A DNA stretch of 64,000 nucleotides. Source: Bacilli bacterium. Lineage in GTDB: Bacteria > Bacillota_I > Bacilli_A > RF39 > UBA660. Positions 1 through 64,000 of the stretch are shown here, one piece after another; within the stretch, counting starts at the first letter, position 1, and each line of letters opens with the position of its first letter. The stretch lies in contig JBGVNW010000068.1 of the NCBI GenBank assembly GCA_045125935.1, positions 133,746 to 197,745 of the forward strand, in the 5' to 3' direction. A program made the translations under genes and the position numbers. The notes under the pieces are model-generated. The model was not told the DNA's origin and did no database searches. It saw nothing but the letters and a program-made list of their open reading frames with translations.

Positions 1-198
1 ATATACTCGTGAGCAGAGGGATTTGCAGGAAGACAGATGGGTAATGATGGCGAATGGATATAGTGAAGCGGGTATTGAAGAAGTTTATATGAATGAAGAA
101 TTGAATACAGAATTTTAAATTTGGACCTGATCGGGTATAATTTGATAGAATTTCTATTTAATTATACCTTATCGGGTATAAAATAATAAGAGATAAAA

Positions 199-1146
199 AT
201 GGCGAATAAGAACGACAATTTACACAAGGCGAAGAAAAACAAGAGTGATGAATTTTACACTTTGCTATCTGATATTGAGAAAGAGATTGAGTATTACAAG
301 GAATACTTTAGTGGTAAGGTAGTGTATTGTAATTGTGATGATTTTCGGGAGTCTAATTTTTTCTATTATTTTTGTAATAAGTTTGAAGAATTAGGATTAA
401 AGAAGTTGATAGCAACTGGATATATAGAAAATTCTACTGGTATTATATCTATATATGATGGTGAAAAAATTGATGTTGGGGAACTTGATGGTGATGGTGA
501 TTTTCGCAGTGAAGAATGTGTTGAAATTCTCAAGGAGTGTGATGTTGTAGTGACTAATCCGCCGTTTAGTTTATTTAGGGATTATGTAAGTTTGGTTATG
601 GAATATGGAAAGCAATTTCTGATTATAGGTAATATTAATGCTATTACATACAAGGAGATATTTCCATATATTAGGAAGAATGAGTTATGGTTAGGGTGTT
701 CATCGTTTAATAGTGGTATGTATTTTAGGGTTCCTGATGATTACGAGTATGCAGACACATATAAATTTGACAGGGAGCGAGATGGACAGAAAGTTATGAT
801 GGTATCTTCTATATGTTGGTATACTAATATTTCCCATAATCGCAGGGGTGTTCAACTTGTGCTAACGAGAGAATATAATGATAGTGATTATAACAGATAT
901 AGCAACTATGATGCGATAGAAGTTTCGAAGGTAGAGAATATACCTATGGATTATTACGGAGAGATGGGCGTTCCAATTACGTTTTTGAATAAGTATTGTC
1001 CAGATCAATTTGAGATTATAGGTCATGAGCATGATATAGATGGTTATGGAAAAGATATTGGTCAATTTGAAGTGAATGGGAAGAGAGTATATAAGCGGAT
1101 ATTGATTAGGAGATTAAAGAATGATGTGATTTTGCATAAAGATTAA
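199..1146 (+). CDS. N6-adenine DNA methyltransferase, EcoRI-methylase-like. No cognate restriction enzyme is visible, so it looks like an orphan.
   Basis: The N-terminal KSDEFYT motif and the following YCNCDD block match my recollection of M.EcoRI-type adenine methylases. The catalytic motif IV NPPF sits in VVVTNPPFSLF. There is no adjacent nuclease-sized partner gene. Confidence 0.7.
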   Translation: MANKNDNLHKAKKNKSDEFYTLLSDIEKEIEYYKEYFSGKVVYCNCDDFRESNFFYYFCNKFEELGLKKLIATGYIENSTGIISIYDGEKIDVGELDGDGDFRSEECVEILKECDVVVTNPPFSLFRDYVSLVMEYGKQFLIIGNINAITYKEIFPYIRKNELWLGCSSFNSGMYFRVPDDYEYADTYKFDRERDGQKVMMVSSICWYTNISHNRRGVQLVLTREYNDSDYNRYSNYDAIEVSKVENIPMDYYGEMGVPITFLNKYCPDQFEIIGHEHDIDGYGKDIGQFEVNGKRVYKRILIRRLKNDVILHKD

Positions 1147-1158
1147 TTATATAGAGAT

Positions 1159-1386
1159 ATGATAGATCCAAAGACGATTAATGCGATTCCTGTAAATAAA
1201 TATACAGATAAGCAGGTAGAAAATTGTAGATTAAAAGTTGAATTTATAAAGAATAGACTTATTGTAGATGATATGGATGATGAATATCAATTTATGATAA
1301 GTGGTATTCTGGATGATTATGTAAGTAAGTTGTATCAAATGGAGCATGCTTTTGAATGGATTCCACTGTGTGAAAAAATATATTAA
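1159..1386 (+). CDS. hypothetical small protein
   Basis: ORF of 75 aa, tightly spaced in the same-strand operon after the MTase; no recognisable motif. Confidence 0.4.
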   Translation: MIDPKTINAIPVNKYTDKQVENCRLKVEFIKNRLIVDDMDDEYQFMISGILDDYVSKLYQMEHAFEWIPLCEKIY

Positions 1387-1390
1387 ATTA

Positions 1391-1423
1391 TTTGGGTTTT
1401 TTCGGAAATTTCTATTATATTTG
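1391..1423 (+). promoter_or_regulatory. Bacteroidota-type promoter candidate (-33 TTTG / -7 TAnnTTTG)
   Basis: TTTG at 1391-1394 and TAtaTTTG at 1416-1423, spaced 21 nt apart, upstream of the gene starting at 1476. The same ttatatttgtaataa string recurs at 7151-7170. Confidence 0.4.
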
Positions 1424-1475
1424 TAATAATAAGAAATAAAGATGTTATAACATAATAAATTATAGAATATGAAAT

Positions 1476-2285
1476 ATGGAATATATTAAGAAGTTTGATA
1501 AATTTATTGATGAGGGTATTGACTTTGATAAAAAGACTATGACGGTTTGGTTTACACCGACAGAAGAAAGATATGTAGACACTTCACTGGAAAATAATCC
1601 CACAATAGATAGAGAAATAATGACGGATGTTGAAGTTTGGTCAATATTTAAGCGTGCAAAGGATGGTAAAAAAGATGACGGAAATCCACTAATTTATGCA
1701 TTGAAAGGTGAAAAAGGATGGGAGTTTCGTGATGATTCTGATCGTGATGCAATTGAAAAACAATTTGAATTGATTGCAGAGAAGTTTGCACAAATGCATC
1801 CTATCGGTGTTACAATTCTTATTCCAAGTGGAAATGCATTAAATAGACATATAGCAGAAGTTATAATGTCAAAATCAAAAGATTCACATTTGATAGAGGG
1901 TGCTATCTCAAAACTGACCGTTGAAGAAGTTGATGAGATAGTATTGAAAAAAGATTCCAAGTTTAGGTCGTATTATGGTGACGATTTTGATGAAGCATAT
2001 GAAAGACTTGAGACATACTTTGATGATATGGACAGCGAACGGGGTGGTATGTTTTCACGGCATTTCATAAAAGATCGTGAAATGAGAAATGTATTGACAG
2101 ATACATTCAAAGTGTCTGCTTCAAGGTATGCAAGAAAGTCAAAATATATAACAGATAAAGATATTCTTATTATTGATGATACGATTGGCAATGGACAGAC
2201 CATAAAAAGTGCTTGTCAAGTTATAATGGAGTCATACTCACCGAAGAGCATTACAGTCTTGACATTATTGTCAAAATTACATTAA
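1476..2285 (+). CDS. two-domain protein: N-terminal unknown domain plus C-terminal phosphoribosyltransferase (PRTase type I)-like domain
   Basis: The C-terminal ILIIDDTIGNGQTIKSACQVI matches the PRPP-binding signature of type I PRTases (hydrophobic run, then DD, then a T/S-G-x-T-type loop). The N-terminal 170 aa are unrecognised. Confidence 0.5.
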   Translation: MEYIKKFDKFIDEGIDFDKKTMTVWFTPTEERYVDTSLENNPTIDREIMTDVEVWSIFKRAKDGKKDDGNPLIYALKGEKGWEFRDDSDRDAIEKQFELIAEKFAQMHPIGVTILIPSGNALNRHIAEVIMSKSKDSHLIEGAISKLTVEEVDEIVLKKDSKFRSYYGDDFDEAYERLETYFDDMDSERGGMFSRHFIKDREMRNVLTDTFKVSASRYARKSKYITDKDILIIDDTIGNGQTIKSACQVIMESYSPKSITVLTLLSKLH

Positions 2286-2295
2286 TATAATTTAT

Positions 2296-2874
2296 ATGGG
2301 ATTAAAGAAAAATTTAAAGAAGGCGAGTAGTCTGACAGCAAAGAAGGGATTATGCACAGAATTGAGTGTAAAGGATATTCAGGCGTTGATAGCGGATTAT
2401 TTTGGTATCAGGAATAATATTATAGTTCCTAATGTAAGTTGGGGATTATTAGATTATGAGGCTGACTTGTTGATAATGAACAAGACTGGTTATATGACAG
2501 AGATTGAGATCAAGAGGAGTTGGGCTGATTTCTTGGTGGATTTCAAGAAGGATGATTGTGCTCACAAATCGGAGATTGTCTATCAGTTTTGGTATTGTGT
2601 TCCTGATGCTATATATAAGGATTGTATAGAGAAGTTGAAGGAAGTTTATCCTGATAGCATTGATAGACCTAATGTGATTTCTTATTCTGACAGCGGGTTG
2701 TTGAATTTTCATGGTAAGACTGCGAGTTATTGTAGGGGCAAGCACAGGAAGTTGTTTTTGGAGGAACAATTAAAATTGGCGAGGTTAGGTACTTTGAGGT
2801 ATTGGAGTTCGGAGTTTAAGAGATTGAGGACTGACAGCGAGGATAAAGATGTTGAATTAAATATAGAAGGGTAG
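2296..2874 (+). CDS. hypothetical protein, possible PD-(D/E)xK fold nuclease
   Basis: LLDYEADLLIM followed about 13 aa later by EIEIKRS fits a D...ExK core. This is a weak, motif-level call. Confidence 0.3.
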   Translation: MGLKKNLKKASSLTAKKGLCTELSVKDIQALIADYFGIRNNIIVPNVSWGLLDYEADLLIMNKTGYMTEIEIKRSWADFLVDFKKDDCAHKSEIVYQFWYCVPDAIYKDCIEKLKEVYPDSIDRPNVISYSDSGLLNFHGKTASYCRGKHRKLFLEEQLKLARLGTLRYWSSEFKRLRTDSEDKDVELNIEG

Positions 2875-2879
2875 AAGAT

Positions 2880-3443
2880 ATGAGTGGTGGACATTTTGAT
2901 TATAATCAGTATCAGATAGAGGATATTGCTGAACACTTAGAGAGGGATATTGATGATATTGAATATGCGAGGAATAAGATTGGGAAGGTAAAGAAGAAAG
3001 AACTATATGGGTATTTAATAAGTGATGAAGGTCGAAAGGAATATGCATTTTGGTTAATAAATATGCTTAATCGATATACCAATCGAGAGGATTTATTAAA
3101 GGCACTTCGAGAGCAAATTGAATTACATGAAAGGGACGGTAAGATATTTGTTAAAGAGGATGGTATAACTTATGAGGTTGTCATTTACGATGGTGAGACT
3201 GAAGAATGGGCAGATGACCAATGGCATTTTGAGATAGAGGATCCAGAGGTGCTTGAAGAGTTCAAGAAGGGGTTGAGGATATTGAAAATGGCGGCGATTT
3301 ATGCTCAAAGAATAGATTGGTTGATGTCGGGTGATGATGGTGAAGAATCTTTCAAGAGGAGGTTGAAAGAAGAACTTGATGAACTTGACAGCAAACCTCT
3401 GATAGATTATGAGAGGTGGGAAAGATGTAGAGAAGAAAAATAA
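2880..3443 (+). CDS. hypothetical acidic protein
   Basis: ORF of 187 aa, very rich in D/E; the start overlaps the previous stop region (operon). Confidence 0.45.
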   Translation: MSGGHFDYNQYQIEDIAEHLERDIDDIEYARNKIGKVKKKELYGYLISDEGRKEYAFWLINMLNRYTNREDLLKALREQIELHERDGKIFVKEDGITYEVVIYDGETEEWADDQWHFEIEDPEVLEEFKKGLRILKMAAIYAQRIDWLMSGDDGEESFKRRLKEELDELDSKPLIDYERWERCREEK

Positions 3444-3470
3444 ATAAAAATTGAAATAAATTGAATAAAT

Positions 3471-3692
3471 ATGTGGTGGATTTTTGGATTAATTAATGTA
3501 GTTATTGTATTTGTGTTTGCTTGGATTTGGTTTAGGGTTATCAAAGATGAGCATACGATAACGAAAAATGATAAAATTGCTTTAGGTGTCTTGTGTGTTT
3601 TGATGTTTTTATTGGGGATTGTGGGCACTGTATTGATTGGTAGTTTATTTATATACTTTATCATAGATTTTATTAGATTTGTTAGAAGATAG
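3471..3692 (+). CDS. small membrane protein (2 predicted TM helices)
   Basis: Hydrophobic stretches IFGLINVVIVFVFAWIWF and VLCVLMFLLGIVGTVLIGSLFIYFII. Confidence 0.4.
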   Translation: MWWIFGLINVVIVFVFAWIWFRVIKDEHTITKNDKIALGVLCVLMFLLGIVGTVLIGSLFIYFIIDFIRFVRR

Positions 3693-3942
3693 GATAATTA
3701 TGGATATGTTATTATATTTTGCTTTCGGAGCGTTGAACATAGGATTGTTATATATAATATCCAATTGGTATAAACGAGAGTCTGGTATTGATTTGCTTCC
3801 TGGTAGAGAGAATAAAAACAGAGGAGATACTATTACAAATATAATTTGTTATTTTATTTCAGGTCCTTTTGGTACAGTGGTACTTGTTTTACTTGGTTTG
3901 TTTTTGTTAAATCTATGGATAAAATATTATAGAAAAAAGTAA
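3679..3942 (+). CDS. small membrane protein
   Basis: Hydrophobic segments LLYFAFGALNIGLLYII and GPFGTVVLVLLGLFLLNLWI; overlaps the previous ORF's end. Confidence 0.4.
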   Translation: MLEDRIIMDMLLYFAFGALNIGLLYIISNWYKRESGIDLLPGRENKNRGDTITNIICYFISGPFGTVVLVLLGLFLLNLWIKYYRKK

Positions 3943-4075
3943 GAAAATATTTGGTTATGCCAAATATTTTTTTTATATTTGTAATGTGAAACTTAAAAAC
4001 AAAAAAATATGATATAAGATGTTACTAAATCTTATCAAAAAACTTATGCAATTTTTCATAATTTTTTAAAATAAA

Positions 4076-4088
4076 TTTACATAAATAC
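4076..4088 (+). promoter_or_regulatory. recurring upstream motif TTTACATAAATAC
   Basis: The same core (C/T)ATAAATA(C/T) lies upstream of at least 10 genes on their coding strand (see findings). Confidence 0.3.
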
Positions 4089-4093
4089 TATAG

Positions 4094-4702
4094 ATGAAAG
4101 CAAAAGAAGTATTAAATATTCTTAACATAGGACATAGAACATTAGGAACTTATGTTAAAAAAGGATTACTTAATCCTATAAAAATTAACACCAACCATTA
4201 TGAATATGATCCAGAAGAAGTGTTCGCAATTTTGGGTAAGAAAAAAGAACGATATAATATTACATACTCTCGTGTTTCATTACCTAAACAAAAAAATGAT
4301 TTGAAAAGACAAACAAAAAGATTGTATGATTTTGCTGCTTCAAATGGTTATCTAATAAAAGAGCAGATAGAAGATGTTAAAAGTGGTATGTCTTTTGAAG
4401 ATAGAAAGGGATTTATTAAATTACTTAAAAAAGTAACTAATTATGAAGTTAAAAATGTAATCATTGAGTATAAAGATAGACTTGTTAGATTTGGATTTGA
4501 ATTAGTAAAAATATTGTTTGAAAAATATGGAACTAATATTATTATAATTTCAGATGATGAAACTAATAAAACCTACGAGCAGGAACTAACAGACGATTTA
4601 TTGTCAATTATACATTATTATTCTATGAAATCATACTCTCATAGACGAAATTTAAACAATGCAGCAAGGGCACTAAAAACAGATGATAACACTGAAAATT
4701 AA
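4094..4702 (+). CDS. tnpA: IS607-family TnpA (serine recombinase with N-terminal MerR-like HTH)
   Basis: The N-terminus EVLNILNIGHRTLGTYVKKGLLNP is HTH-like. The catalytic serine context YSRVSLPKQKNDLKRQ matches the resolvase YxRVSxxxQ...DLxRQ motif. Size is about 200 aa. Confidence 0.8.
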   Translation: MKAKEVLNILNIGHRTLGTYVKKGLLNPIKINTNHYEYDPEEVFAILGKKKERYNITYSRVSLPKQKNDLKRQTKRLYDFAASNGYLIKEQIEDVKSGMSFEDRKGFIKLLKKVTNYEVKNVIIEYKDRLVRFGFELVKILFEKYGTNIIIISDDETNKTYEQELTDDLLSIIHYYSMKSYSHRRNLNNAARALKTDDNTEN

Positions 4703-6068
4703 ATATACTACCACAGAAGATGGTTTGAATTTAATTAAAGAGTATAGAAAACAATACTCTTCGGTGCTTCATTTTGCTTACAATAGGCGATATGAAGGTG
4801 TTAGTGAAAAGAATATAGAACATCAAATAAGTTCATTGAATAATATTCCACTTGTTAAGTCATATCTTAAACGCTGTGCTGTTAAAAATGCTACACAATT
4901 AATTAAAGATGGTAATAATAAACAACTGATATTTGGTGGCAAGAAGAATTTTATTGCTCGTTGCAAAGGTAAAATATCTAAAGATGAATTTTTAAATAAG
5001 AGATTAAGTAAATTATTCATTATTGGCGAAGCAAACCAACATGGTAATAGAATTGTGGTTATAAATGATGATTTAGAATCTTTTACTTTTAAACCAACGA
5101 TAAGAGATAAAATTGTTTTATCTATTGCTGGTAGATATAAAAGATATAAGTCAATATTAAATAAATTATATCACTTACAAAAAGATAAGCAAATATCTAT
5201 AACATACGAGTTAGACAATGAATATATTTATTTAACTTACGATGAAACATTATTAAACCAATTTGTTGATTATAAACCTATTAAAAACAGGATATTTGCT
5301 ATTGACTTAAATCCAAATTATATTGGATGGTCTGTGGTTGATTGGAAGAGTAGTAGTAAGTTCGAAGTTGTTAAAAGTGGAGTTATTAGTATAAAGGATA
5401 TAAATGATATTGATTTTGGTTTAAAAGGTAAATCAAGCGAATCAAAAGAAAGAAAATATATTAATAATAAACGAATATTCGAAACATACGAAATAAGTAA
5501 GTTACTTGTTAATACTGCTAAATATTATAGATGTGAAGTGTTTGGTTTAGAAGAACTTAATATAAAAAGTAAAGACACTACCAGAGGAAAACATTATAAT
5601 AAGTTAGTTAATAATGTTTGGAATAGAAATAAACTTGTTAATAACATTAAGAAAAAATGTAATATTTATTCTATTAGAGTAATGTTAGCAAAACCAAATT
5701 ATAGTTCGTTTGTTGGTAACTTTTTATTTAGAGATTTAAACCTACCAGATATGGTTTTAGCATCAATAGAAATAGGTAGAAGATGTTATGAGTTTAAAGC
5801 ACAATATATAGATAAAACAAAAGATAAAAGAAAAAATATAATTTTACCTGATGTTAATGATTTTCATGATAGATATGTTAAGTCGTTGGAAGAATTTAAT
5901 ATACCAGTAGAAATCAAAGACTTGGATAAAATATATTATTTCTTAAAAAACGCTAAAAGCAGATATAGGGTTTCTTTAGATGATTTAAGTCATTTGGAGT
6001 TTTCAAGATGTTTTTCAAACAAAAGTAAAGTTAAGAAAATTTTAATAACATTACATAAAAATATATAA
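4683..6068 (+). CDS. tnpB: TnpB-like (OrfB) RuvC-fold protein lacking the zinc-finger insert
   Basis: RuvC-I FAIDLNPN, RuvC-II EVFGLEELNIKSK and RuvC-III-like PDMVLASIEIG are present. The CxxC...CxxC zinc ribbon expected between RuvC-II and RuvC-III is absent (only a 12-aa linker). There is an extra C-terminal extension of about 110 aa. Confidence 0.65.
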   Translation: MITLKIKYTTTEDGLNLIKEYRKQYSSVLHFAYNRRYEGVSEKNIEHQISSLNNIPLVKSYLKRCAVKNATQLIKDGNNKQLIFGGKKNFIARCKGKISKDEFLNKRLSKLFIIGEANQHGNRIVVINDDLESFTFKPTIRDKIVLSIAGRYKRYKSILNKLYHLQKDKQISITYELDNEYIYLTYDETLLNQFVDYKPIKNRIFAIDLNPNYIGWSVVDWKSSSKFEVVKSGVISIKDINDIDFGLKGKSSESKERKYINNKRIFETYEISKLLVNTAKYYRCEVFGLEELNIKSKDTTRGKHYNKLVNNVWNRNKLVNNIKKKCNIYSIRVMLAKPNYSSFVGNFLFRDLNLPDMVLASIEIGRRCYEFKAQYIDKTKDKRKNIILPDVNDFHDRYVKSLEEFNIPVEIKDLDKIYYFLKNAKSRYRVSLDDLSHLEFSRCFSNKSKVKKILITLHKNI

Positions 6069-6072
6069 AAAC

Positions 6073-6708
6073 ATGAGTCTGAAGGTAGATAATTTTGATT
6101 TGATTAAAAAGCATATTCATTCATCTGACAGCAATGAGTTTTATATGCTTCAGGTTATGCGAAGAACGAAAGATCAAGTTGGATATGACGGAAAGCGTAA
6201 GCAGAGTGTTATTAAGTCTTATTTTATTTCTTCTCCAGAATATTTGGACAGCAAGCGAGATGAGATTGTAGGATTGTGTGAGATGTTTAATGCTCGTGCG
6301 TATATCAATTTGAATAAGAAGTCATATAAGCAGGTATCTTTGAAAGCACTTGAGATACTTGCTGGGAAGATTGCACATGAGGATTACAATATTAAGTCAT
6401 TATTTGAGTCTGCTGCTGGTCAGACGGGTGCTTGTGATGGTAATAAATCGTGGATTGTAGATATCGACACAAAGGATATGGATGTAGTAGAAAAATGGAA
6501 GTCAATTATTAACGATGCTGCCCCAGTGGGTGATAAGATTATTGATATTTTTCCTACACTACACGGGTATCATCTTATTTCAAAACCATTTAATAAACAA
6601 GTATTGTGTTTTGGTTCACAACTTGAACAAATAGATGTTCATAATAATAATCCAACAATCTTATATGTAAATTTAAAAGATAGCGAAAATGACAATGAAA
6701 GCGAATAA
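6073..6708 (+). CDS. hypothetical protein with weak archaeo-eukaryotic primase (AEP)-like motifs
   Basis: SWIVDIDTKDMD (hhhDhD-like), then about 33 aa later PTLHGYHLIS (sGxHL-like), then QIDVHNN. Its 3' end overlaps the smpB start by 20 nt. Confidence 0.35.
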   Translation: MSLKVDNFDLIKKHIHSSDSNEFYMLQVMRRTKDQVGYDGKRKQSVIKSYFISSPEYLDSKRDEIVGLCEMFNARAYINLNKKSYKQVSLKALEILAGKIAHEDYNIKSLFESAAGQTGACDGNKSWIVDIDTKDMDVVEKWKSIINDAAPVGDKIIDIFPTLHGYHLISKPFNKQVLCFGSQLEQIDVHNNNPTILYVNLKDSENDNESE

Positions 6709-7144
6709 TATAACTATCAAAAATAGAAAAGCAAGTTATGAGTATAATTTTTTAGATACTTATATTGCTGGTATTCAATTAGTTGGAGTAGAGATTAAAT
6801 CTATCAGGAATGGTAGGGTTAATCTATCGGAGTCATATTGTGTTTTTCAGCATGGGGAACTTTTTTTAATAAACACGCATATTTCACCATATGAGAATGC
6901 TGGATATGTGAAGGTTGATCCTTTGCGAGAACGAAAACTATTGTTAAATAAAAACGAATTGAGAAAGTTGAGCGATGGTGTGTCCAGAAAGGGATTAACT
7001 ATTGTTCCTACCAAGATGTTTATTAATGATAGGGGTTTATGTAAGGTTGAGATTTGTTTATGTCAAGGTAAGAAGAATTACGACAAGCGAGAATCTTTAA
7101 AAGAAAAAGATTTAAAAAGACGAATTAATAATTTGGATTATTAG
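6689..7144 (+). CDS. smpB: SmpB (SsrA/tmRNA-binding protein) homolog
   Basis: Full-length collinear match to the bacterial SmpB signature: NRKASYEY (NRKARHEY), GIQLVGVEIKSIRNGRVNLSESY, DPLRERKLLLNKNEL, GLTIVPTKMFINDRGLCKVEICLCQGKKNYDKR, and a basic C-terminal tail. Confidence 0.85.
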   Translation: MTMKANNITIKNRKASYEYNFLDTYIAGIQLVGVEIKSIRNGRVNLSESYCVFQHGELFLINTHISPYENAGYVKVDPLRERKLLLNKNELRKLSDGVSRKGLTIVPTKMFINDRGLCKVEICLCQGKKNYDKRESLKEKDLKRRINNLDY

Positions 7145-7163
7145 AATTTTTTTGTTATATTTG
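7132..7163 (+). promoter_or_regulatory. Bacteroidota-type promoter candidate
   Basis: TTTG at 7132-7135 and TAtaTTTG at 7156-7163 (20-nt spacer), upstream of the 7192 start. Confidence 0.45.
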
Positions 7164-7191
7164 TAATAACGATTAAAATAAGAAAAAAACT

Positions 7192-56151: not shown

Positions 56152-56187
56152 GAAAGAGAGGAACTTAAATTCCTCTCTTTCTTTTTA
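56150..56187. terminator. bidirectional terminator (agagaggaa/ttcctctct family)
   Basis: agaaagagaggaa-cttaaa-ttcctctctttct followed by ttttt, between convergent genes. Confidence 0.7.
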
Positions 56188-59100
56188 TTGCGGTTTAAAT
56201 GTATATTTATTTTTACCTGTATTGATATTTATTCTTTCATTAATATATTCTTTATAATTCACTATAGATTGTTCGTCATTATCATTAATCATAAAATCAT
56301 AATATACAACACTATACTGATCTACTGGAATAAATACAAAGTTATCATCTAACGGCGAACCATTATATTTAGGCAATATAATATTTTTACCTAAACCATA
56401 ATATCCAATAACAAATGAACTACTGTTGTTTTTATGATTTGCCGTTGTTAAATCATTCACAGCAAAACTATCATCAAACACACGACCATTTAAGAATATT
56501 GTCAATATACCAGATACAAAATTATCTAAATAAACTTCCCTGTTTTTAATAGCAATTGGACAACCATAATCTTCAATCATATTATATGCATTCTTTCTAC
56601 CACACAGATTTAAATCAACATAAAATCTATCAATAAAATCATTCCAACCGTTTATTGTTGATATACCAACATCTATTGTCCATGTATTTACTTTTTCAAT
56701 TGATGACTCTATTATATCAGTATAATATCCTCTTTGATGTCCAATTATATATTTATTACTAAAATCAATATCTTGGTTATTTTCAATGAACACATGTTTA
56801 GCATCACGAACATTTTCCCACTTTACACTCTTATCAGTAGTAAAATAGTATTGATTATGATATTCCAAACTCAAATTTGCAATATTAAAATCTCTATTTG
56901 TTTTATATCCATTAATATTAACACCATTTGGTTTTATTGGCATGTTCCAATGTTTTGGTAAATTATACCTAAAATTAAATATATTCATCAAACTTTTACT
57001 TGATGTGAAATTAGCAGGAACATACACAAACTGTCCAAGATTTTTATCACCACTAACAGGTTTTCTCTTCTTTAACATACCATCATCATCTCTAAATACA
57101 ACACAATATGTTTCATTATCACTATCGCTGTCAGATTCTATTTCAACAATATTAGTTATATTATTCAAAATTGAATTATCCAATCCACCTTCACTATCAT
57201 AATAATACTCAAGATTTGGCATTATATTGACATTCTTGAAAATATTTGGAATAGGTTGATTATTAATCTTCTTTGTTAAATTTCTTGGTATAACACCGAT
57301 AATATTTGAATTTGCAAATATGCTATCTATTGTTGCGGTGCTATTACATCCATATAAGAAATCTGGTGGTAAGCAACAATAAGTTTTTTGAATTGTATTG
57401 TTATTAGATTTATTTTCAGGATCAAAAGGCATATTATCTTTAGTATTACCATAATATGTAAAATCTTGTAATAAATCATGATTGTTTAATGTATAATCGC
57501 CTATTTCATTATCTGATATGAAATCCGTATAATTATCTAAACAATCGTCAAACACATCATTATCAAGAATATACTTTTCATAAGAATTAAATATGATATT
57601 ATACTTATAATACACAAATCCATTTTCGTCATGTTTATTTTCTTCACCATCTCCTGTTGAAATATAATTTCTATAACCGATGATATTTACATTTGATTCA
57701 CTATTATGATCAAACCAGTTTTTACAATTTACAAATTTTGTATTATAAAAACATTCTTTCAAATTACTTATATCAGATTTATATGTATATTCATATAATT
57801 TAGCAACATCTGATTGATTTTCTGATAATAAAATATCAGATTCTTTGTAATTTTTACTTCGCTTACAGAAATAATCATATGTAAGAGGTGTTGATAAATA
57901 TGTGTTTGCAAATGTTCTTTGTGCTATAGTAAAGTTAGGTAATTTTTCAAAGAAAGATCTTCCTAAATTTAAAACACCACCTGTATATATACCTTTATCT
58001 CCTCCATAAGAATTAGCAAATGGTTTGTAGTCACTTGTACAATTTTCAAATAAGAAACTTATATTTATAATATTATCTAAAGTTTTTTCTGTTTCAAACT
58101 TAATTTCTTCATTATTATATTCTGTAATTGTACAATAACTAAAAATATTTGTTAATCGTTTGAAATCTTTATTTTTTTCATTCGTTGCTATCTCTACTAT
58201 CTTTTCAAGAACTTTTTTGAAATTATTATAAGTAATTGTTTTATTTACTCTAAAACCATTTGATAAATTATTACTTGTTTGTCCTTCAAATAGACTTGTA
58301 ACACCTTCTGTTACATTCTCATCCCAATTAAAGAAATTATATAAATCTATTACTTGAGTGCTATTATTAATATAATCATCATTAAAACTATTACTTATTG
58401 ATGTTATATTTTTACAAGGTCGCAACAATCCTTCAATATTATAATTACTCAATTTACCATTAAGAAAATTAGATATAGTCTTAACATTTGGAAATAAATT
58501 AAACATACCTCTAAAATCAATAATACAATCATCACCAAAATTTAATGAATTGATAGAAGTAATATTATTATATGCCAATATAATATCATCAGTTTTTGTA
58601 TGGTAGAAAAATTTACATATATCAAACGCTCCATTCAATTCTCCTGCGGTTTTATATTGATTTGAAATTCCATCATATTCATATATAATAAATTTAATAC
58701 CTGAATAAGTTTCTAATCTATATGATATATTTTCCAAAGCATCGCTTGAAATATCTACCCCAGAAGACATATTTGATTTTATAAACGAATTCCATGATAA
58801 TCCATTTTCGGGATTATTTTTAGTAGCAGGTAAACTTAATAATTGTTTAGATATAAATGTTACACCCGTATTCTCATACATTCCAGAAATATCAGTTAAA
58901 GAAGTGTATCCATCTAATTTAGGACTATATTTGCGATTTTTATAATCAGAAGCAGCGTCAACTTTAGTATATATTATATCTTTTCTTCCTTTAAAACATC
59001 CAGATAATGATGTAATTTTTTCCTTAACGCTAACAGGAACACATGTTTCAATAAACCTAATAGCGGTTTTCATATTAAATTTAGCATCATCTGCTGAATT

Positions 59101-62100
59101 GGTTGATGAACCAGACATATAAAATGTATTTTCCAAAGATGTACAATTTTCAGAAACAGTGATATTTGTATATGCTATGTAATTTCCATTACCTATCATT
59201 TCTAAACCCTTATTCCAATCACTTCTTACCATATTGTAATTAGGACAATTGTTGAAAGCACCATCAGAACATAATATTAATTTAAAACCTTTAGGATATA
59301 TTGGGAACATTACATTTTCATAATCACCCACACCTTCAATATAATCATCTGCGGGAGTTTTATCATCTTCATCTCTGAAAGCAGGTAAAATACCTGTATC
59401 AATCCATTTCAAATTGATATTATTATTCATACCATCAGTTTCAATATCATGATCTGGTAATTTAATATGAACTAACTTATCACAATTTTTAAGGGTAACT
59501 CTTTTTAAATTAGGATAATTTGTAAAGTCAAATACACCCGATGTACCTTCAGTACCTAATGATATTTTATCTAACTTCGATTCAACTTCATCTTTTCCAA
59601 TTTTCATCAAATCGATATATATTTCTTCAAGAGCACCATCTATTGAAAGATTTTCAAGGTTATTACAACTTTCTATACGAACTTTTCTAAATCCGACAAG
59701 ACTCAAATTTTTCAATCTTGTGTCACCAGATATTGAAAATTCAGACAAATCACCTGTATTAAAATCAGAATCAAAAAGAGAATCAGAATCTTCACCATCC
59801 CATTTAGAATTATTTTTAATACGAATATCTTCTATATTAGTATTATTACAAATAAACTTTCCAGTAACACCAGTTATATCAAGAAGATTTAATGTTGTTT
59901 TATGTTTTTCATCAACACCACTTATAATAAAGTTTTCACCAGTTAAATAATCACTACCAGAAACCACAATACCATTATTAAGTGAATTAACACCAGATAT
60001 ATTAACATATTGTAAGTTAGGGAAATTTTGGAAATTTCCATAAAATCCACTTTTGGCAATATTGATTTTCATTAATGATATACATCTATCACTAATCAAT
60101 AACTCACCACCCATGTTTTCAATATCCAATTTTATTTCTCTAACAGATTTAGCATCTATAGTAAATCCACCAGTATAATTGCTAACTTTAGATCCACCAT
60201 ATGTTATCTTTTCAATATTATCAGATATAATACTTTTATATTGGGTAAACATACTTTCTATTTTATTCACAGAATTAAACATTCCAGAACCATAAAATCT
60301 GGCAGCAATTGATTCGCCAATATTTTCAAAAAATATTAAATTAGGTTTATCAACACCACCTGGTAACAAATACATTTTTGCATCATCTGTACCTGTTCTA
60401 AAAATAAATGGAGTATGTTTTGGTGCATATATTTCAACTTCACCACTAAAATTAGATAGTGCAGTATTGTGTTGATTGCTATCAAATGCTGAATGCAAAA
60501 TAGTAATATCATTATTATCCGATAACTTATCTTTATATTCATTACCCGGACCTGGAACCAATAAATTTCTATCATTATATACAGGAACTTGTAATCCATT
60601 AACATTCATCATAACATCTATAAAACGAAGTCTCTTTGTTAGCCAATTTTTAACTTTTATTCTACGACTACCATTAAATGCAGCAGCATTCGCAAGATAT
60701 TGTTCTATTGGTTTATCATTGCTATCAAATGTTTGTCCATTATATAAATACTTAACTCTATAATTTAAAGACGCTAAATATTCAAATGTAGATGTTATAC
60801 CAGATTTAAAATAATTATTAATAAAATAATCAGCACTTCTCAATGCACCTTCAGAATTTCGCAATGCCGCCCAAAAGTTTTGAGGATAATGGAATAAATT
60901 AGATTCATATTTTTCTTCTGAATCTGGCAAAGATTCAAAAATTGGTTTCGCATATTTAATTACGGCAAATAAATAACTAGAAGTAAAGTCAAATCCTTTA
61001 CCACCTTCTGAACTATCCCAATAATCATTTTCTTTTACAATCTCACCAACTTTATTTTTTTCATCCATTTTAGAATACCAATAATCAGTAGCGGCGAGAT
61101 ATGAAATCTTTTCTTCACCATCATTCGCTTCTTCAAGAGCACAGTCCATATCATAGAATGCACAATGGAAATTATAACCATCTTCCTTACTTCTGAAATT
61201 TTTTAGATTCATGTTCTTTAAAACAGAATCCACCATACCAAATGCCATACATATTGTATAATATTCAGATGCTGAAGTAAAATTCAATATTGGTTTATTT
61301 GCATTACCATCTTCAAGAGTGTATGTAGTAATTAATTTTTTCAAATCAATATCACTCACATTATCAAAATCTTCTTCTGTTTCATACCATTCGATATTAG
61401 AACCAAACTCGTCAGATATATTATTATACTTCTTTTGCCATTTTGGGTGTGGAATTTTTTTCTCATTATATCTGTTTATACATCCATATCCATATACAGT
61501 ATCTCCATTATCGTCAATTGTAAACTCTCTAGAAGGAACAAAATCATTAACTCTACCAACTCGTTCGAAGCAGAACTTACCTGCTTTTGCAACACCTTTA
61601 ACTAAATTTTGTAATGCTGTCTGTGCACCATCAATATCTGTCGCTGTAATTTTGCTGTCATCACCAAACATACAAGCATTATTACCTTTCGTTTTCTTAA
61701 ATAACAAAGTTTCATCAAATTGATGAAAATCAAATTCTGGATAATTATCTTGGATTTCACCGACAGCAATATTTGGACTCAATACACCTTCTCCGACAGC
61801 AAATGTAAATACCTTATCTTTAAAATATTTAGAAGAATTTTCGTCTTGAATATTATAAAACACTCTCATAAAATCACTTCTATTTTCTTGTACATCTACA
61901 ATACCACCAGTATAACCAAGATTATAATAAGAATTTCTACCAAGGTTAAAATTATATATACCAAAATAATATGTCTTTGTAATATCAGTTATACCATCAA
62001 TATCCTTACCTTTACACATGAAGTATAACAATACAGGTATGCCCTCCAATGTGTTTTTTACAAATTTTTTAGCATCTGCAGTAGCATCTGGGATATTTGT

Positions 62101-64000
62101 ATCTATTTTTGTACAAACATCATTAACAAACTTACCGATAGATGTGTTATTAGCATGAGCACTATCTGCGATATCTGCTTTTATAGTCCATTCAATATCT
62201 GGTAAAAATGTTTTATTATCTTCAATATCAAATTTAGGACTAAACAATATTTTGTCTTTTCCACTTTGACTTTCACTTTTAATTCTCAATGAGTAATTTT
62301 TAATTCTATTTCTCATTGTAGATGTTCCCTGAAGATCAATTTCCCATGAACCTGTAATATTCTGATTATTTGTGTTATCTTTAAGACCACTTGGAATATT
62401 AACCAAATGTTCGCTCATATTACCTATAGCACCTGCTGGTATCCAATATAAATCTATCTTTCTACTACCGAATGTTGTATCTCCATTTGGTCTACCTGCC
62501 CACATCAATTCCATAAATTCTGATAGCGATTTTTGAGAACCATTTTCACAATCATAACTAAATACAACTGTAGGCAATTCACTTCTATTTGCAATATCCA
62601 TTATAATTGATGAATCGACAACAACATTCGTTCCGTCAAACAAAATACGATTCATATTTTCTTTGATGAATATCTCACCTTCTGTCAAACGATTTTCGTT
62701 AGAACCAGAATTTACATATTTCTCTTTATACGATAACCAATATTGATATGCATATGCATCTGGATTGAATTTGGTTGTAACACCATTGTATGTATATGAT
62801 GGTGAAAAATATTGAATATTAATTAAATTATAACATATATTAATATTATTTAACACCAATTTATTAACAACGGATGATACAGAATATGTAGATCTATCTA
62901 CAGATTCTATTAATCCATCAATATACAAACTATCCTCAAATACAGGAACGCCATCTGGACTATCAGATAAATTTCTAATTATCTGAACTAAATGATATTG
63001 ACTATTATCATTTTTATTTAAAATTTCTGTAGGTATAGCAATCTTATTAATTTCGCTATCTACATTTGTAAATAATCTCGTTGTTCTCAACGGATACTTC
63101 GCATCTGTTGTAGATGATGTTGTATATATATCTACAATTTTAGCATTTTCAGAATTAATATCACTAACTTGAATACCAAAAGTTATTACAGTGCAAATAT
63201 TATCTGTAATACCACCCCAGTTAGATTGAACTAATTCGATATGTTTCGACGAAGTTGTTAAACTTAAAACTCCATCACCAGATGATAATGCTGGAAATGA
63301 TTTATATGTATCGCTACCTTGATTAGATCTAAAGTAACTATCCATAACAACATTATATCTATTGCTATCAAACCAATCACATTCAGACTTAAAAGACTTT
63401 ACAAATACATATTTATAAAATTCTTTATCAATATTAGACGCATCACCTTTAGTTCCTTTTGTTGTAATTTTAATTTGTTTTATACCTCCTGTTGGAAATG
63501 TTACTGAAACACCCTTAACAGATTCTATTTGTTCTGTTAATTGATCGCTTTCAGATATATTCAACCTATTCCAGTCTATAATATCACCATTATCATTAAT
63601 AACAGCATCATATGTATTGAATACAACATTATATGAACTTGGTATAGAAGACATAACACCTTCAAATACCTTACAATACATCATTAAAGATGAACCTTGA
63701 CTTATATGCTTATATGGGATACCATCTTTACCATTTTTTATATCAGATTTTAGTAACTCAATATCATCATATAAAACATCGCCAGCAGTTCTTACATTAA
63801 TATACAAGTCAGATGGAACAATACTAAATAAGAAACTTCTTATTCTAATAACTTCTCTACCAGTAATTTTATAAGAAAGTGTTGCTTTTAATGTATATGT
63901 TCCCATATATTTGTTTTGGAGAATCGGTTCATTATTAATAAATATTTCACAATTCTCACCTTCAATTGGTATATCCTTATTTTCGCTACCTTCGTAAATT
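56185..64000 (-). CDS. giant protein (>2600 aa), 5'-partial at window edge; virion/tail-associated function suspected
   Basis: The ORF track gives 2573 aa from a Met at 63906. The same frame stays open through 63907-64000 (IYEGSENKDIPIEGENCEIFINNEPILQNKY precedes MGTY), so the gene continues beyond the window. Confidence 0.6.
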   Translation of the reverse strand, partial: IYEGSENKDIPIEGENCEIFINNEPILQNKYMGTYTLKATLSYKITGREVIRIRSFLFSIVPSDLYINVRTAGDVLYDDIELLKSDIKNGKDGIPYKHISQGSSLMMYCKVFEGVMSSIPSSYNVVFNTYDAVINDNGDIIDWNRLNISESDQLTEQIESVKGVSVTFPTGGIKQIKITTKGTKGDASNIDKEFYKYVFVKSFKSECDWFDSNRYNVVMDSYFRSNQGSDTYKSFPALSSGDGVLSLTTSSKHIELVQSNWGGITDNICTVITFGIQVSDINSENAKIVDIYTTSSTTDAKYPLRTTRLFTNVDSEINKIAIPTEILNKNDNSQYHLVQIIRNLSDSPDGVPVFEDSLYIDGLIESVDRSTYSVSSVVNKLVLNNINICYNLINIQYFSPSYTYNGVTTKFNPDAYAYQYWLSYKEKYVNSGSNENRLTEGEIFIKENMNRILFDGTNVVVDSSIIMDIANRSELPTVVFSYDCENGSQKSLSEFMELMWAGRPNGDTTFGSRKIDLYWIPAGAIGNMSEHLVNIPSGLKDNTNNQNITGSWEIDLQGTSTMRNRIKNYSLRIKSESQSGKDKILFSPKFDIEDNKTFLPDIEWTIKADIADSAHANNTSIGKFVNDVCTKIDTNIPDATADAKKFVKNTLEGIPVLLYFMCKGKDIDGITDITKTYYFGIYNFNLGRNSYYNLGYTGGIVDVQENRSDFMRVFYNIQDENSSKYFKDKVFTFAVGEGVLSPNIAVGEIQDNYPEFDFHQFDETLLFKKTKGNNACMFGDDSKITATDIDGAQTALQNLVKGVAKAGKFCFERVGRVNDFVPSREFTIDDNGDTVYGYGCINRYNEKKIPHPKWQKKYNNISDEFGSNIEWYETEEDFDNVSDIDLKKLITTYTLEDGNANKPILNFTSASEYYTICMAFGMVDSVLKNMNLKNFRSKEDGYNFHCAFYDMDCALEEANDGEEKISYLAATDYWYSKMDEKNKVGEIVKENDYWDSSEGGKGFDFTSSYLFAVIKYAKPIFESLPDSEEKYESNLFHYPQNFWAALRNSEGALRSADYFINNYFKSGITSTFEYLASLNYRVKYLYNGQTFDSNDKPIEQYLANAAAFNGSRRIKVKNWLTKRLRFIDVMMNVNGLQVPVYNDRNLLVPGPGNEYKDKLSDNNDITILHSAFDSNQHNTALSNFSGEVEIYAPKHTPFIFRTGTDDAKMYLLPGGVDKPNLIFFENIGESIAARFYGSGMFNSVNKIESMFTQYKSIISDNIEKITYGGSKVSNYTGGFTIDAKSVREIKLDIENMGGELLISDRCISLMKINIAKSGFYGNFQNFPNLQYVNISGVNSLNNGIVVSGSDYLTGENFIISGVDEKHKTTLNLLDITGVTGKFICNNTNIEDIRIKNNSKWDGEDSDSLFDSDFNTGDLSEFSISGDTRLKNLSLVGFRKVRIESCNNLENLSIDGALEEIYIDLMKIGKDEVESKLDKISLGTEGTSGVFDFTNYPNLKRVTLKNCDKLVHIKLPDHDIETDGMNNNINLKWIDTGILPAFRDEDDKTPADDYIEGVGDYENVMFPIYPKGFKLILCSDGAFNNCPNYNMVRSDWNKGLEMIGNGNYIAYTNITVSENCTSLENTFYMSGSSTNSADDAKFNMKTAIRFIETCVPVSVKEKITSLSGCFKGRKDIIYTKVDAASDYKNRKYSPKLDGYTSLTDISGMYENTGVTFISKQLLSLPATKNNPENGLSWNSFIKSNMSSGVDISSDALENISYRLETYSGIKFIIYEYDGISNQYKTAGELNGAFDICKFFYHTKTDDIILAYNNITSINSLNFGDDCIIDFRGMFNLFPNVKTISNFLNGKLSNYNIEGLLRPCKNITSISNSFNDDYINNSTQVIDLYNFFNWDENVTEGVTSLFEGQTSNNLSNGFRVNKTITYNNFKKVLEKIVEIATNEKNKDFKRLTNIFSYCTITEYNNEEIKFETEKTLDNIINISFLFENCTSDYKPFANSYGGDKGIYTGGVLNLGRSFFEKLPNFTIAQRTFANTYLSTPLTYDYFCKRSKNYKESDILLSENQSDVAKLYEYTYKSDISNLKECFYNTKFVNCKNWFDHNSESNVNIIGYRNYISTGDGEENKHDENGFVYYKYNIIFNSYEKYILDNDVFDDCLDNYTDFISDNEIGDYTLNNHDLLQDFTYYGNTKDNMPFDPENKSNNNTIQKTYCCLPPDFLYGCNSTATIDSIFANSNIIGVIPRNLTKKINNQPIPNIFKNVNIMPNLEYYYDSEGGLDNSILNNITNIVEIESDSDSDNETYCVVFRDDDGMLKKRKPVSGDKNLGQFVYVPANFTSSKSLMNIFNFRYNLPKHWNMPIKPNGVNINGYKTNRDFNIANLSLEYHNQYYFTTDKSVKWENVRDAKHVFIENNQDIDFSNKYIIGHQRGYYTDIIESSIEKVNTWTIDVGISTINGWNDFIDRFYVDLNLCGRKNAYNMIEDYGCPIAIKNREVYLDNFVSGILTIFLNGRVFDDSFAVNDLTTANHKNNSSSFVIGYYGLGKNIILPKYNGSPLDDNFVFIPVDQYSVVYYDFMINDNDEQSIVNYKEYINERININTGKNKYTFKPQ

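Follow-up and report, generated by a model that had tools for sequence, protein, structure and literature searches.

An architecturally unusual phosphoribosyltransferase of phages, plasmids and conjugative elements, located beside unrelated backbone genes in a 64-kb stretch of phage DNA

A stretch of 64,000 nucleotides (contig JBGVNW010000068.1 of assembly GCA_045125935.1, positions 133,746 to 197,745; hereafter the window, whose own numbering is used throughout) carries at 1476-2285 a gene for a phosphoribosyltransferase (PRTase), which a first-pass annotation had placed at the head of a compact five-gene accessory cassette (1476-3942). Our analysis indicates that this gene is a very divergent, architecturally unusual mobile-element PRTase belonging to a family that occurs as a stand-alone single gene of phages, plasmids and conjugative elements and has no conserved partner, and that what looked like a five-gene system reflects the chance placement of this accessory gene next to four unrelated backbone genes. 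A new mechanism is not demonstrated by the present data.

The PRTase assignment was examined in an alignment of 105 diverse family members, on which all conservation counts and the structure model given below are based. The window protein matches Pfam PF00156 with 31.3 bits against a curated cut-off of 26.3, over residues 211-268 only, and 81 of the 105 members match this model too. The first-pass annotation had recognised a C-terminal type-I loop for phosphoribosyl pyrophosphate (PRPP), and this loop, ILIIDDTIGNGQT, is indeed present, with a hydrophobic strand, two acidic residues and the pattern [ST]-x-G-x-[ST]. The consensus reads D234 (100/105), D235 (103/105), [T/S]236, I237, [S/T]238, any residue, G240 (97/105), any residue at 241 and [T/S]242 (100/105), or DD[TS]I[ST]xGx[TS] in short, so that the residues expected to bind PRPP (D234, D235, G240 and T/S242) are conserved in 97-103 of the 105 proteins. 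Positions conserved in at least 90% of the members are G14, P42, S56, F58, R60, D68, P71, A75, K77, P117, S118, K146, R204, D234, D235, G240, P256 and S266. The basic residues among them (R60, K77, K146 and R204) could be available to serve phosphates; together with the PRPP motif they are kept in 96-103 of the 105 members, which are 26-48% identical to the window protein.

An AlphaFold2 (AF2) model of the protein reached a predicted local distance difference test score (pLDDT) of 92.3 and a predicted template modelling score (pTM) of 0.87; an earlier model from 23 close homologues had reached a pLDDT of 72, and its Foldseek searches of PDB and BFVD were uninformative. With the newer model, the leading Foldseek matches in PDB were all type-I PRTases at probabilities of 0.99-1.0, namely the adenine PRTase APRT (5zgo, E 7e-4), HGPRT (3gep), 4trb, purine PRTases and ComF (7p0h). 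The gene and its parts are as follows.

1476-2285, + strand: PRTase of 269 residues, the feature of interest (PF00156, AF2 model, PDB fold matches)
1476-1733, + strand: residues 1-86, family-specific N-terminal beta-rich extension with hairpins at 14-27 and 43-60 and a helix at 71-77
1824-1844, + strand: residues 117-123 (PSGNALN), loop that follows core strand 112-115, the first of the core, probably at the position of the pyrophosphate (PPi) loop, judging by topology
1896-2159, + strand: residues 141-228, mainly helical insert of about 85 residues (AF2 model and conservation)
2160-2201, + strand: residues 229-242, core strand (229-236) and PRPP loop ILIIDDTIGNGQT (PF00156 and conservation)

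In the model, a long helix spans residues 87-107, and the PRTase-type core begins near residue 87. The loop at the putative PPi position is well conserved (P117 in 96, S118 in 98 and N123 in 94 of 105, or PS.N..N) and is followed by a helix (122-133) and by short strands (138-146). The helical insert, which includes a helix at 162-189, occupies the place of the flexible loop of other PRTases and holds the near-invariant K146 and R204 as well as an F193-x-x-H/K196 motif. After the PRPP loop there are only a helix (241-253) and a final strand (258-268), and the protein ends about 30 residues past the loop, at residue 269 after LLSKLH, with no C-terminal hood. The first-pass annotation had described a separate N-terminal domain of 170 residues fused to the PRTase, perhaps a sensor; this description needs to be revised, as the core starts at about residue 87 and the insert lies at 141-228, leaving only about 85 extra residues. 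The N-terminal 86 residues are conserved as strongly as the catalytic loop. Since they belong to the best-conserved regions of the family, they would be better understood as an integral hood or substrate-binding element than as a sensor, and the extension is accordingly regarded here as a putative hood or acceptor site. Its conserved motif DGNPLIYALKGEKGW (residues 68-82, nucleotides 1677-1721) resembles by chance the consensus repeat of the designed alphaRep proteins. These proteins were the top matches in a PDB sequence search and were discarded as spurious, the resemblance being one between their PLIKALKDEDGW repeats and DGNPLIYALKGEKGW.

The family is widespread among very different elements. 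A word-indexed search returned 837 full-length homologues, the best 120 of which are 60-91% identical, and an exhaustive profile search gave 646 clusters at 50% identity (E <=1e-3), or 383 at E <=1e-10; members are mostly 240-310 residues long and match end to end. Among deposited phages, the PRTase matches only nine records of Prevotella Lak megaphages (~550 kb), with 3-4 copies per genome and a best identity of 60%, and other gut jumbo phages carry it too, IMG/VR jumbo contigs of 250-450 kb having one or two copies. GTDB genomes with the gene include metagenome-assembled genomes of Bacteroidales, and more distant members (23-34% identity) were found in Alphaproteobacteria, Acinetobacter, Rahnella, Vibrio and others. 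In Alphaproteobacteria, at seven to eight loci (about six genera), the PRTase gene directly follows VirB6/TrbL, VirB8, VirB9 and VirB10 genes of a type IV secretion system (T4SS); at the one T4SS locus looked at further (L088, Paracoccus), a large serine recombinase gene comes after it. At eight other loci it adjoins a helix-turn-helix (HTH)/ImmA-IrrE gene. Plasmids of Proteobacteria have it as well; in PLSDB, 38 plasmids carry the PRTase, always alone and annotated as 'phosphoribosyltransferase' or hypothetical, with Rep genes, CopG/HTH regulators, transposons and, on the 3' side in a Serratia plasmid, an SprT-like protein as neighbours; mobilisable Acinetobacter plasmids of only about 5 kb also bear it, and a protein of pESA2 is tied to the family by hhalign (238 columns, probability 99.3%). 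At three independent loci the gene is present as tandem paralogues. It is rare in E. coli, being present in one of 5,426 complete genomes.

An all-against-all comparison of the neighbouring genes at more than 100 loci revealed no partner gene conserved across lineages. The sole recurrence was SmpB, about 5 kb away in two jumbo-phage groups, which likely reflects backbone synteny. Orphan methyltransferases of two different families adjoin the PRTase, one in the window and one in L107, where it lies directly upstream and genes for a single-strand DNA-binding protein (SSB) and MetK are nearby. A nuclease-like DUF2779 gene was seen near the PRTase in L001-L004, L044 and L045 (~7240-8810) and in L039 (2956-5031); it was rejected as a partner, being confined to two lineages and differing in distance and side. 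The flanks of the PRTase in a Bacteroidales element are variable, as those of a defence island are, and include McrBC, PDDEXK_4 and REase-ARP. In L028, a 149-kb phage contig, a PRTase gene 83% identical to that of the window directly follows a gene for a 357-residue adenylosuccinate-synthetase-like protein (6891-7964), with dUTPase and DnaB near; the 357-residue protein has weak similarity to solved adenylosuccinate synthetases (E 2e-5) and could be a PurA- or PurZ-type enzyme. Fusions of the PRTase are rare. Two clusters have a C-terminal BspA-type leucine-rich repeat; a fusion of 577 residues (P0121, L110 782-2515) begins with an N-terminal family of about 300 residues that is also free-standing on megaphage contigs of 375-555 kb and whose GS...DIDIA motif is suggestive of a pol-beta-type nucleotidyltransferase; and a fusion of 615 residues (P0129) has an N-terminal KYDG motif. 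The extra domains of the latter two fusions were not identified by PDB sequence search; no fusion domain recurs beside the PRTase elsewhere, and the fusions were set aside.

The immediate surroundings of the gene in the window are AT-rich (~29% GC, as measured for the window) and comprise seven open reading frames (ORFs) on the + strand between 199 and 3942. A megablast search of window positions 1-8000 against deposited phages gave no DNA match. Besides the PRTase gene, the features are:

199-1146, + strand: orphan EcoRI-type N6-adenine DNA methyltransferase (PF13651, E 7e-118)
1159-1386, + strand: 75-residue ORF (orf75); its copy in L025-L027, likewise upstream of the PRTase, is 77% identical
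1391-1423, + strand: Bacteroidetes-type promoter-like motif TTTG-N21-TATATTTG, a consensus match only, in the 89-nt gap 5' of the PRTase
2296-2874, + strand: candidate MmcB-like PD-(D/E)xK protein of 192 residues (orf192; phrog_2776 at 1e-18)
2880-3443, + strand: acidic protein of 187 residues (orf187; isoelectric point 4.66, 49 Asp and Glu among 187 residues)
3471-3692, + strand: 73-residue protein with two hydrophobic segments; homologues in L025 and L032-L034
3679-3942, + strand: 87-residue protein with two hydrophobic segments; homologues in L025 and L032-L034
3941-3973, + strand: AT-rich 15-bp hairpin (dG -12.8 kcal/mol, z -4.1; equal stability in 0/200 shuffles)

According to the first-pass annotation, 1476-3942 would be one functional cassette of the PRTase, a PD-(D/E)xK nuclease, an acidic protein and two membrane proteins. 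Its inventory of the genes is borne out: orf192 is a PD-(D/E)xK candidate, with E55, D57, E69, E71 and K73 invariant among its homologues; the acidic protein is as acidic as described; and the two tiny membrane proteins have two hydrophobic segments each. The genes also lie on one strand with tight spacing, between a promoter-like site and a hairpin, and they keep the same order in the closest relative, L025. However, in L032-L034 (one of them 353 kb) the homologues of orf192 (83% identical), orf187 (62%), the two small transmembrane proteins, orf211, SmpB and a 528-residue protein follow one another in the order of the window, without the PRTase, orf75 or the methyltransferase, the four genes downstream of the PRTase being 42-83% identical to those of the window. 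Homologues of orf192 lack the PRTase throughout L032-L037 and are also found in other, unrelated phage contexts. In L025 itself, a 2.5-kb insertion of small ORFs and a second orf192 copy (8820-9410 and 11114-11667) parts orf192 from orf187. The four genes adjoin the PRTase only in L025 and in the short contigs L026 and L027, where the start of an orf192 homologue is present, and the PRTase occurs in dozens (>40) of phage, plasmid and conjugative-element contexts without the downstream block. The PRTase ORF also appears to move by itself: in L038-L041, DNA similarity to the window (82-88%) is limited to this ORF, from within about 30 nt upstream to within about 10 nt downstream. Because relatives keep the block without the PRTase and the PRTase occurs without the block, the cassette reading fails, and we consider a common function of the five genes, including the proposed pairing with membrane partners, hardly credible.

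DNA alignment further reveals that one slot, bounded by orf192 and by a conserved gene upstream, exists in three states, with an 82-residue ORF in L033, orf75 and the PRTase in L025, and the methyltransferase, orf75 and the PRTase in the window; this slot 5' of orf192 is thus a variable accessory hot spot. The methyltransferase has no adjoining endonuclease and is missing from the otherwise syntenic L025 and L033; it is probably an anti-restriction gene and a neighbour in the same slot, not a partner of the PRTase. The orf75 gene accompanies the PRTase in the closest relatives only, and its absence from L028, L029, L038-L041 and L107-L108 rules it out as partner or antitoxin. On the other side, orf192 and orf187 are phage backbone genes, the former unlinked to the PRTase. 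Weak sub-threshold matches to the MmcB-like family PF06319 were obtained for 21 of 25 orf192 homologues (best E 1.5e-4), and orf192 itself reaches 14.9 bits (cut-off 22) and matches phrog_5429, 'DNA repair protein', at 1.5e-4. No Pfam match was found for orf187, copies of which (62-64% identical) lie 3' of orf192 in L025 and L032-L034. Searches of viral contigs found no orf192 and only two fragments of orf187.

Regarding the operon proposed by the first-pass annotation, co-transcription of the five genes is plausible because they are tightly spaced (10, 5 and 27 nt and then one overlap), a promoter-like motif lies upstream and a hairpin downstream, these being signals at the level of consensus. 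The motif at 1391-1423, which may act as a promoter, is the sole Bacteroidetes-type promoter-like site in the region of the five genes, and similar TTATATTTG sites are located at 3950-3981 and 7132-7163. The pattern TTTG-N18-22-TAnnTTTG has 12 matches in the window versus 4.7 expected, a number reached in 0/100 shuffles; this enrichment, in line with the Lak-phage relatives, agrees with a Bacteroidales/Prevotella host. The hairpin that closes the gene run is possibly a terminator; a consensus terminator scan requires at least three GC pairs and therefore missed it.

Comparison with characterised PRTases places the protein at a distance from all of them. With the NCBIfam models of HPRT, PyrR, XPRT, UPRT, Prs and ComF it obtains 13-31 bits, where the cut-offs lie at 113-438, and PHROGs contains no good family for it. 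HPRT/HGPRT share the type-I fold and provide the best sequence match, at the PRPP loop and the next strand (P-K-S-I...T-L-L-x-K). In 6-oxopurine PRTases, the catalytic Asp stands three residues after the DD/ED pair and a C-terminal hood follows the LLxK strand, whereas the window protein lacks both this hood and the third acidic residue of the PRPP loop, position 238 being S, T or G in its family, and has the helical insert and the N-terminal beta-rich extension in addition. ComF resembles it in that N-terminal strands extend the PRT core, and no other Foldseek alignment was as long as that to 7p0h (249 columns, TMq 0.38), an alignment that the alphaRep helper in that chain may have inflated. 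ComFC is a PRPP-binding PRT-fold protein linked to incoming DNA whose physiological ligand is unknown (PMC9005727). The window protein differs in having no 4-Cys zinc finger (there is no Cys cluster in its N-terminal 100 residues), the ComF model TIGR00201 scores 15.6 bits versus 233.55, and hhalign to ComFC covers 43 columns only. PRPP synthetase and the Adps of NARP1 were rejected (Prs models at 13-15 bits versus 113-327), and no Namat gene is among the adjoining genes (methyltransferase, 75-residue ORF and MmcB-like gene), the rest of the window not having been scanned for it. NARP3 was set aside as a system that has no PRTase. The PRTases of Ter systems were likewise discarded, their PRTase_2 matches being weak and limited to the PRPP loop and TerC lying near the PRTase in one locus only.

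The closest precedent may be a group described by Iyer, Burroughs, Anand, de Souza and Aravind in 2017, who reported PRTase domains in the polyvalent proteins that phages and conjugative elements encode, plus 'related solo PRTase domains' in both settings (PMC5512222). These PRTases of 'invasive elements' make up a separate group with a catalytic DD motif and conserved features of its own, mainly from Proteobacteria and Verrucomicrobia, and their 'enigmatic' role was proposed to be the making or sensing of a nucleotide at DNA entry (PMC5512222). Judging by the 'CE' in its name, Pfam PRTase-CE (PF24390) is probably this group. The occurrence of the window family in megaphages, plasmids and T4SS operons matches the 2017 description, so that this kind of mobile-element PRTase had already come to notice in computational work. 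However, the window protein reaches only 15.4 bits with PF24390 (cut-off 27), 8 of the 105 members match weakly (best E 5e-6), and the PRPP loop lies mid-way in PF24390 (~130/253) and 30 residues from the C-terminus in the window protein. The clade studied here stays below the PRTase-CE threshold and is marked by a PRPP loop near the C-terminus, a putative hood at the N-terminus and a Bacteroidetes/megaphage branch; we found no mention in the literature of such a PRTase in Lak or other megaphages.

What the enzyme does can be approached through several readings. The one that we favour, tentatively and with somewhat less than even confidence, is that invading elements may carry it as a self-contained accessory enzyme that binds PRPP or a nucleotide, acts on one conserved acceptor and is useful in establishment or host conflict. 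In such an enzyme, the PRPP loop, the helical insert (as a lid) and the N-terminal extension (as a hood) would enclose the ligand, PRPP or a 5-phosphoribosyl nucleotide, and the phosphoribosyl group would pass to the one acceptor, probably a purine-like base. The enzyme would act early, once the DNA of the element has entered the cell, and to the benefit of the element: a nucleotide could be supplied, re-made, consumed or sensed while the element becomes established and is in conflict with host immunity. In the window phage, it would do so from an accessory slot beside an orphan methyltransferase, transcribed ahead of four unrelated backbone genes. Beyond the distribution of the family, the hot spot by the orphan methyltransferase, the methyltransferase in L107, the SprT-like neighbour on the Serratia plasmid, single-gene mobility and paralogue expansion are hints in this direction. 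Several observations weigh against it. Foldseek TM-scores to the known PRTases are just 0.3-0.47, and sequence similarity to characterised enzymes does not extend beyond some 45-55 residues at the PRPP loop. Some PRT-fold proteins, such as PurR, PyrR and ComFC, can be pure ligand sensors or nucleic-acid binders (PMC9005727), and catalysis is therefore not guaranteed. The match to PF24390 lies below threshold, so that identity with the 2017 group is not established. Some copies stand in seemingly ordinary regions of Bacteroidales chromosomes (L106), and several phage copies are found among replication and nucleotide-metabolism genes, which fits plain salvage equally well. A more specific version, which we hold to be quite unlikely as it stands, is a single-gene counter-defence or establishment enzyme that, by analogy with NAD+ reconstitution pathways, would use PRPP to rebuild a nucleotide from a base freed by immune nucleosidases of the host, or would phosphoribosylate and neutralise an immune metabolite, the acceptor being recognised by the N-terminal hood.

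The main rival is an ordinary auxiliary metabolic gene, that is, a divergent purine (6-oxopurine or adenine) salvage PRTase that would increase the nucleotide supply while a large, AT-rich phage genome is replicated. By sequence and profile it matches HPRT chains best (3ohp, E 7e-7), PKSI..TLLSK at its C-terminus can be aligned with PKSI..TLLDK of HPRT, and hhalign to E. coli Hpt gives 94.9%, over the PRPP loop and the next strand only. The gene order in L028, where the adenylosuccinate-synthetase-like gene comes directly before the PRTase, would also suit salvage, as would other copies near family-B DNA polymerase, a topoisomerase subunit, SSB and MetK, and tandem paralogues could differ in base specificity. 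However, the HGPRTase model TIGR01203 yields 30.8 bits against a cut-off of 150 (residues 222-268 only), neither the C-terminal hood of purine PRTases nor their catalytic Asp is present, the adjacency in L028 was seen once, and salvage offers no obvious benefit on 5-kb mobilisable plasmids, beside plasmid replication genes or at the ends of T4SS operons. We thus regard it as unlikely, and agree with the first-pass suspicion that this is not a conventional salvage PRTase: scores fall far under curated thresholds, there is no conserved metabolic operon, and the carriers are mobile elements. The enzyme could also be a single-gene abortive-infection or superinfection-exclusion effector, similar to ShosT or retron III-A, that once triggered depletes PRPP or perturbs purine metabolism and has an N-terminal sensor. 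Those effectors and PsyrT are likewise non-canonical PRTases on mobile elements or in defence islands, in which PRPP binding is essential and PRPP or purine pools are perturbed. PADLOC gives weak matches to all three (ShosT 5e-5, PRTase_III-A 1e-4, PsyrT 8e-3); DDTIGNGQ resembles the motif TDTIGSGNQ of the retron-Eco11 effector (PMC12746101); copies in Bacteroidales elements stand beside variable McrBC, PD-(D/E)xK and DUF2779 genes; and AbiEii is near the copy on a Yersinia plasmid and a gene with an Abi_C domain about 4 kb off in L088. However, the PADLOC matches amount to 12-21 bits and cover the PRPP loop only, and Foldseek to ShosT gives an E-value of 0.06. The characterised PRTase effectors all act with partners, namely ShosA, a reverse transcriptase with a noncoding RNA, or a helicase (PMC11961720, PMC12961424, PMC12746101), and have extra domains (pyrophosphatase, winged helix, helicase), whereas the window protein is solitary and of another architecture: none of these partners, nor any antitoxin, is conserved in the more than 100 loci, and there is no Rfam match in the window. 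Moreover, its N-terminal region is among the most conserved parts, unlike fast-evolving sensors, and 3-4 copies per lytic megaphage genome together with tandem duplicates would be odd for a suicide effector. We consider this reading distinctly improbable.

Several other features of the window were recorded. An IS607-type element (4094-6068) consists of a MerR-HTH serine recombinase (phrog_6620, 3e-48) overlapping a 461-residue TnpB-like ORF, for which no Pfam match was found; its slot is occupied by a gene for 265-284 residues in L032/L033 and empty in L025, which has a TnpB-like remnant at another place. On its 3' side follow a phrog_14949 protein, a phage-encoded SmpB (6689-7144; NCBIfam equivalog, 1e-55) and the 528-residue protein, a homologue of which in L025/L032 matches DUF2828/DUF7788. 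The latter pair (6689-8778) is kept in related jumbo phages, SmpB being 55% identical in IMG/VR contigs of 250-450 kb. ARAGORN and Rfam searches of the 64-kb window were negative both for tmRNA and for other RNA families. The largest ORF of the window encodes 2573 residues (56185-63906, - strand).

PRTase-fold proteins stand on both sides of phage-host conflicts: ShosT, retron III-A effectors and PsyrT belong to defence, and ComFC to DNA uptake. The negative result on the apparent five-gene system, which reduces to an accessory gene next to backbone genes, is useful in itself. The PRTase family is large, solitary and compact (~270 residues), has a high-confidence model, occurs in very different invading elements across phyla and is multicopy in Lak megaphages. 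Determining its acceptor and its effect on the host would make clear why a PRTase of their own is so frequent among mobile elements, and might reveal counter-defence at the level of nucleotides.

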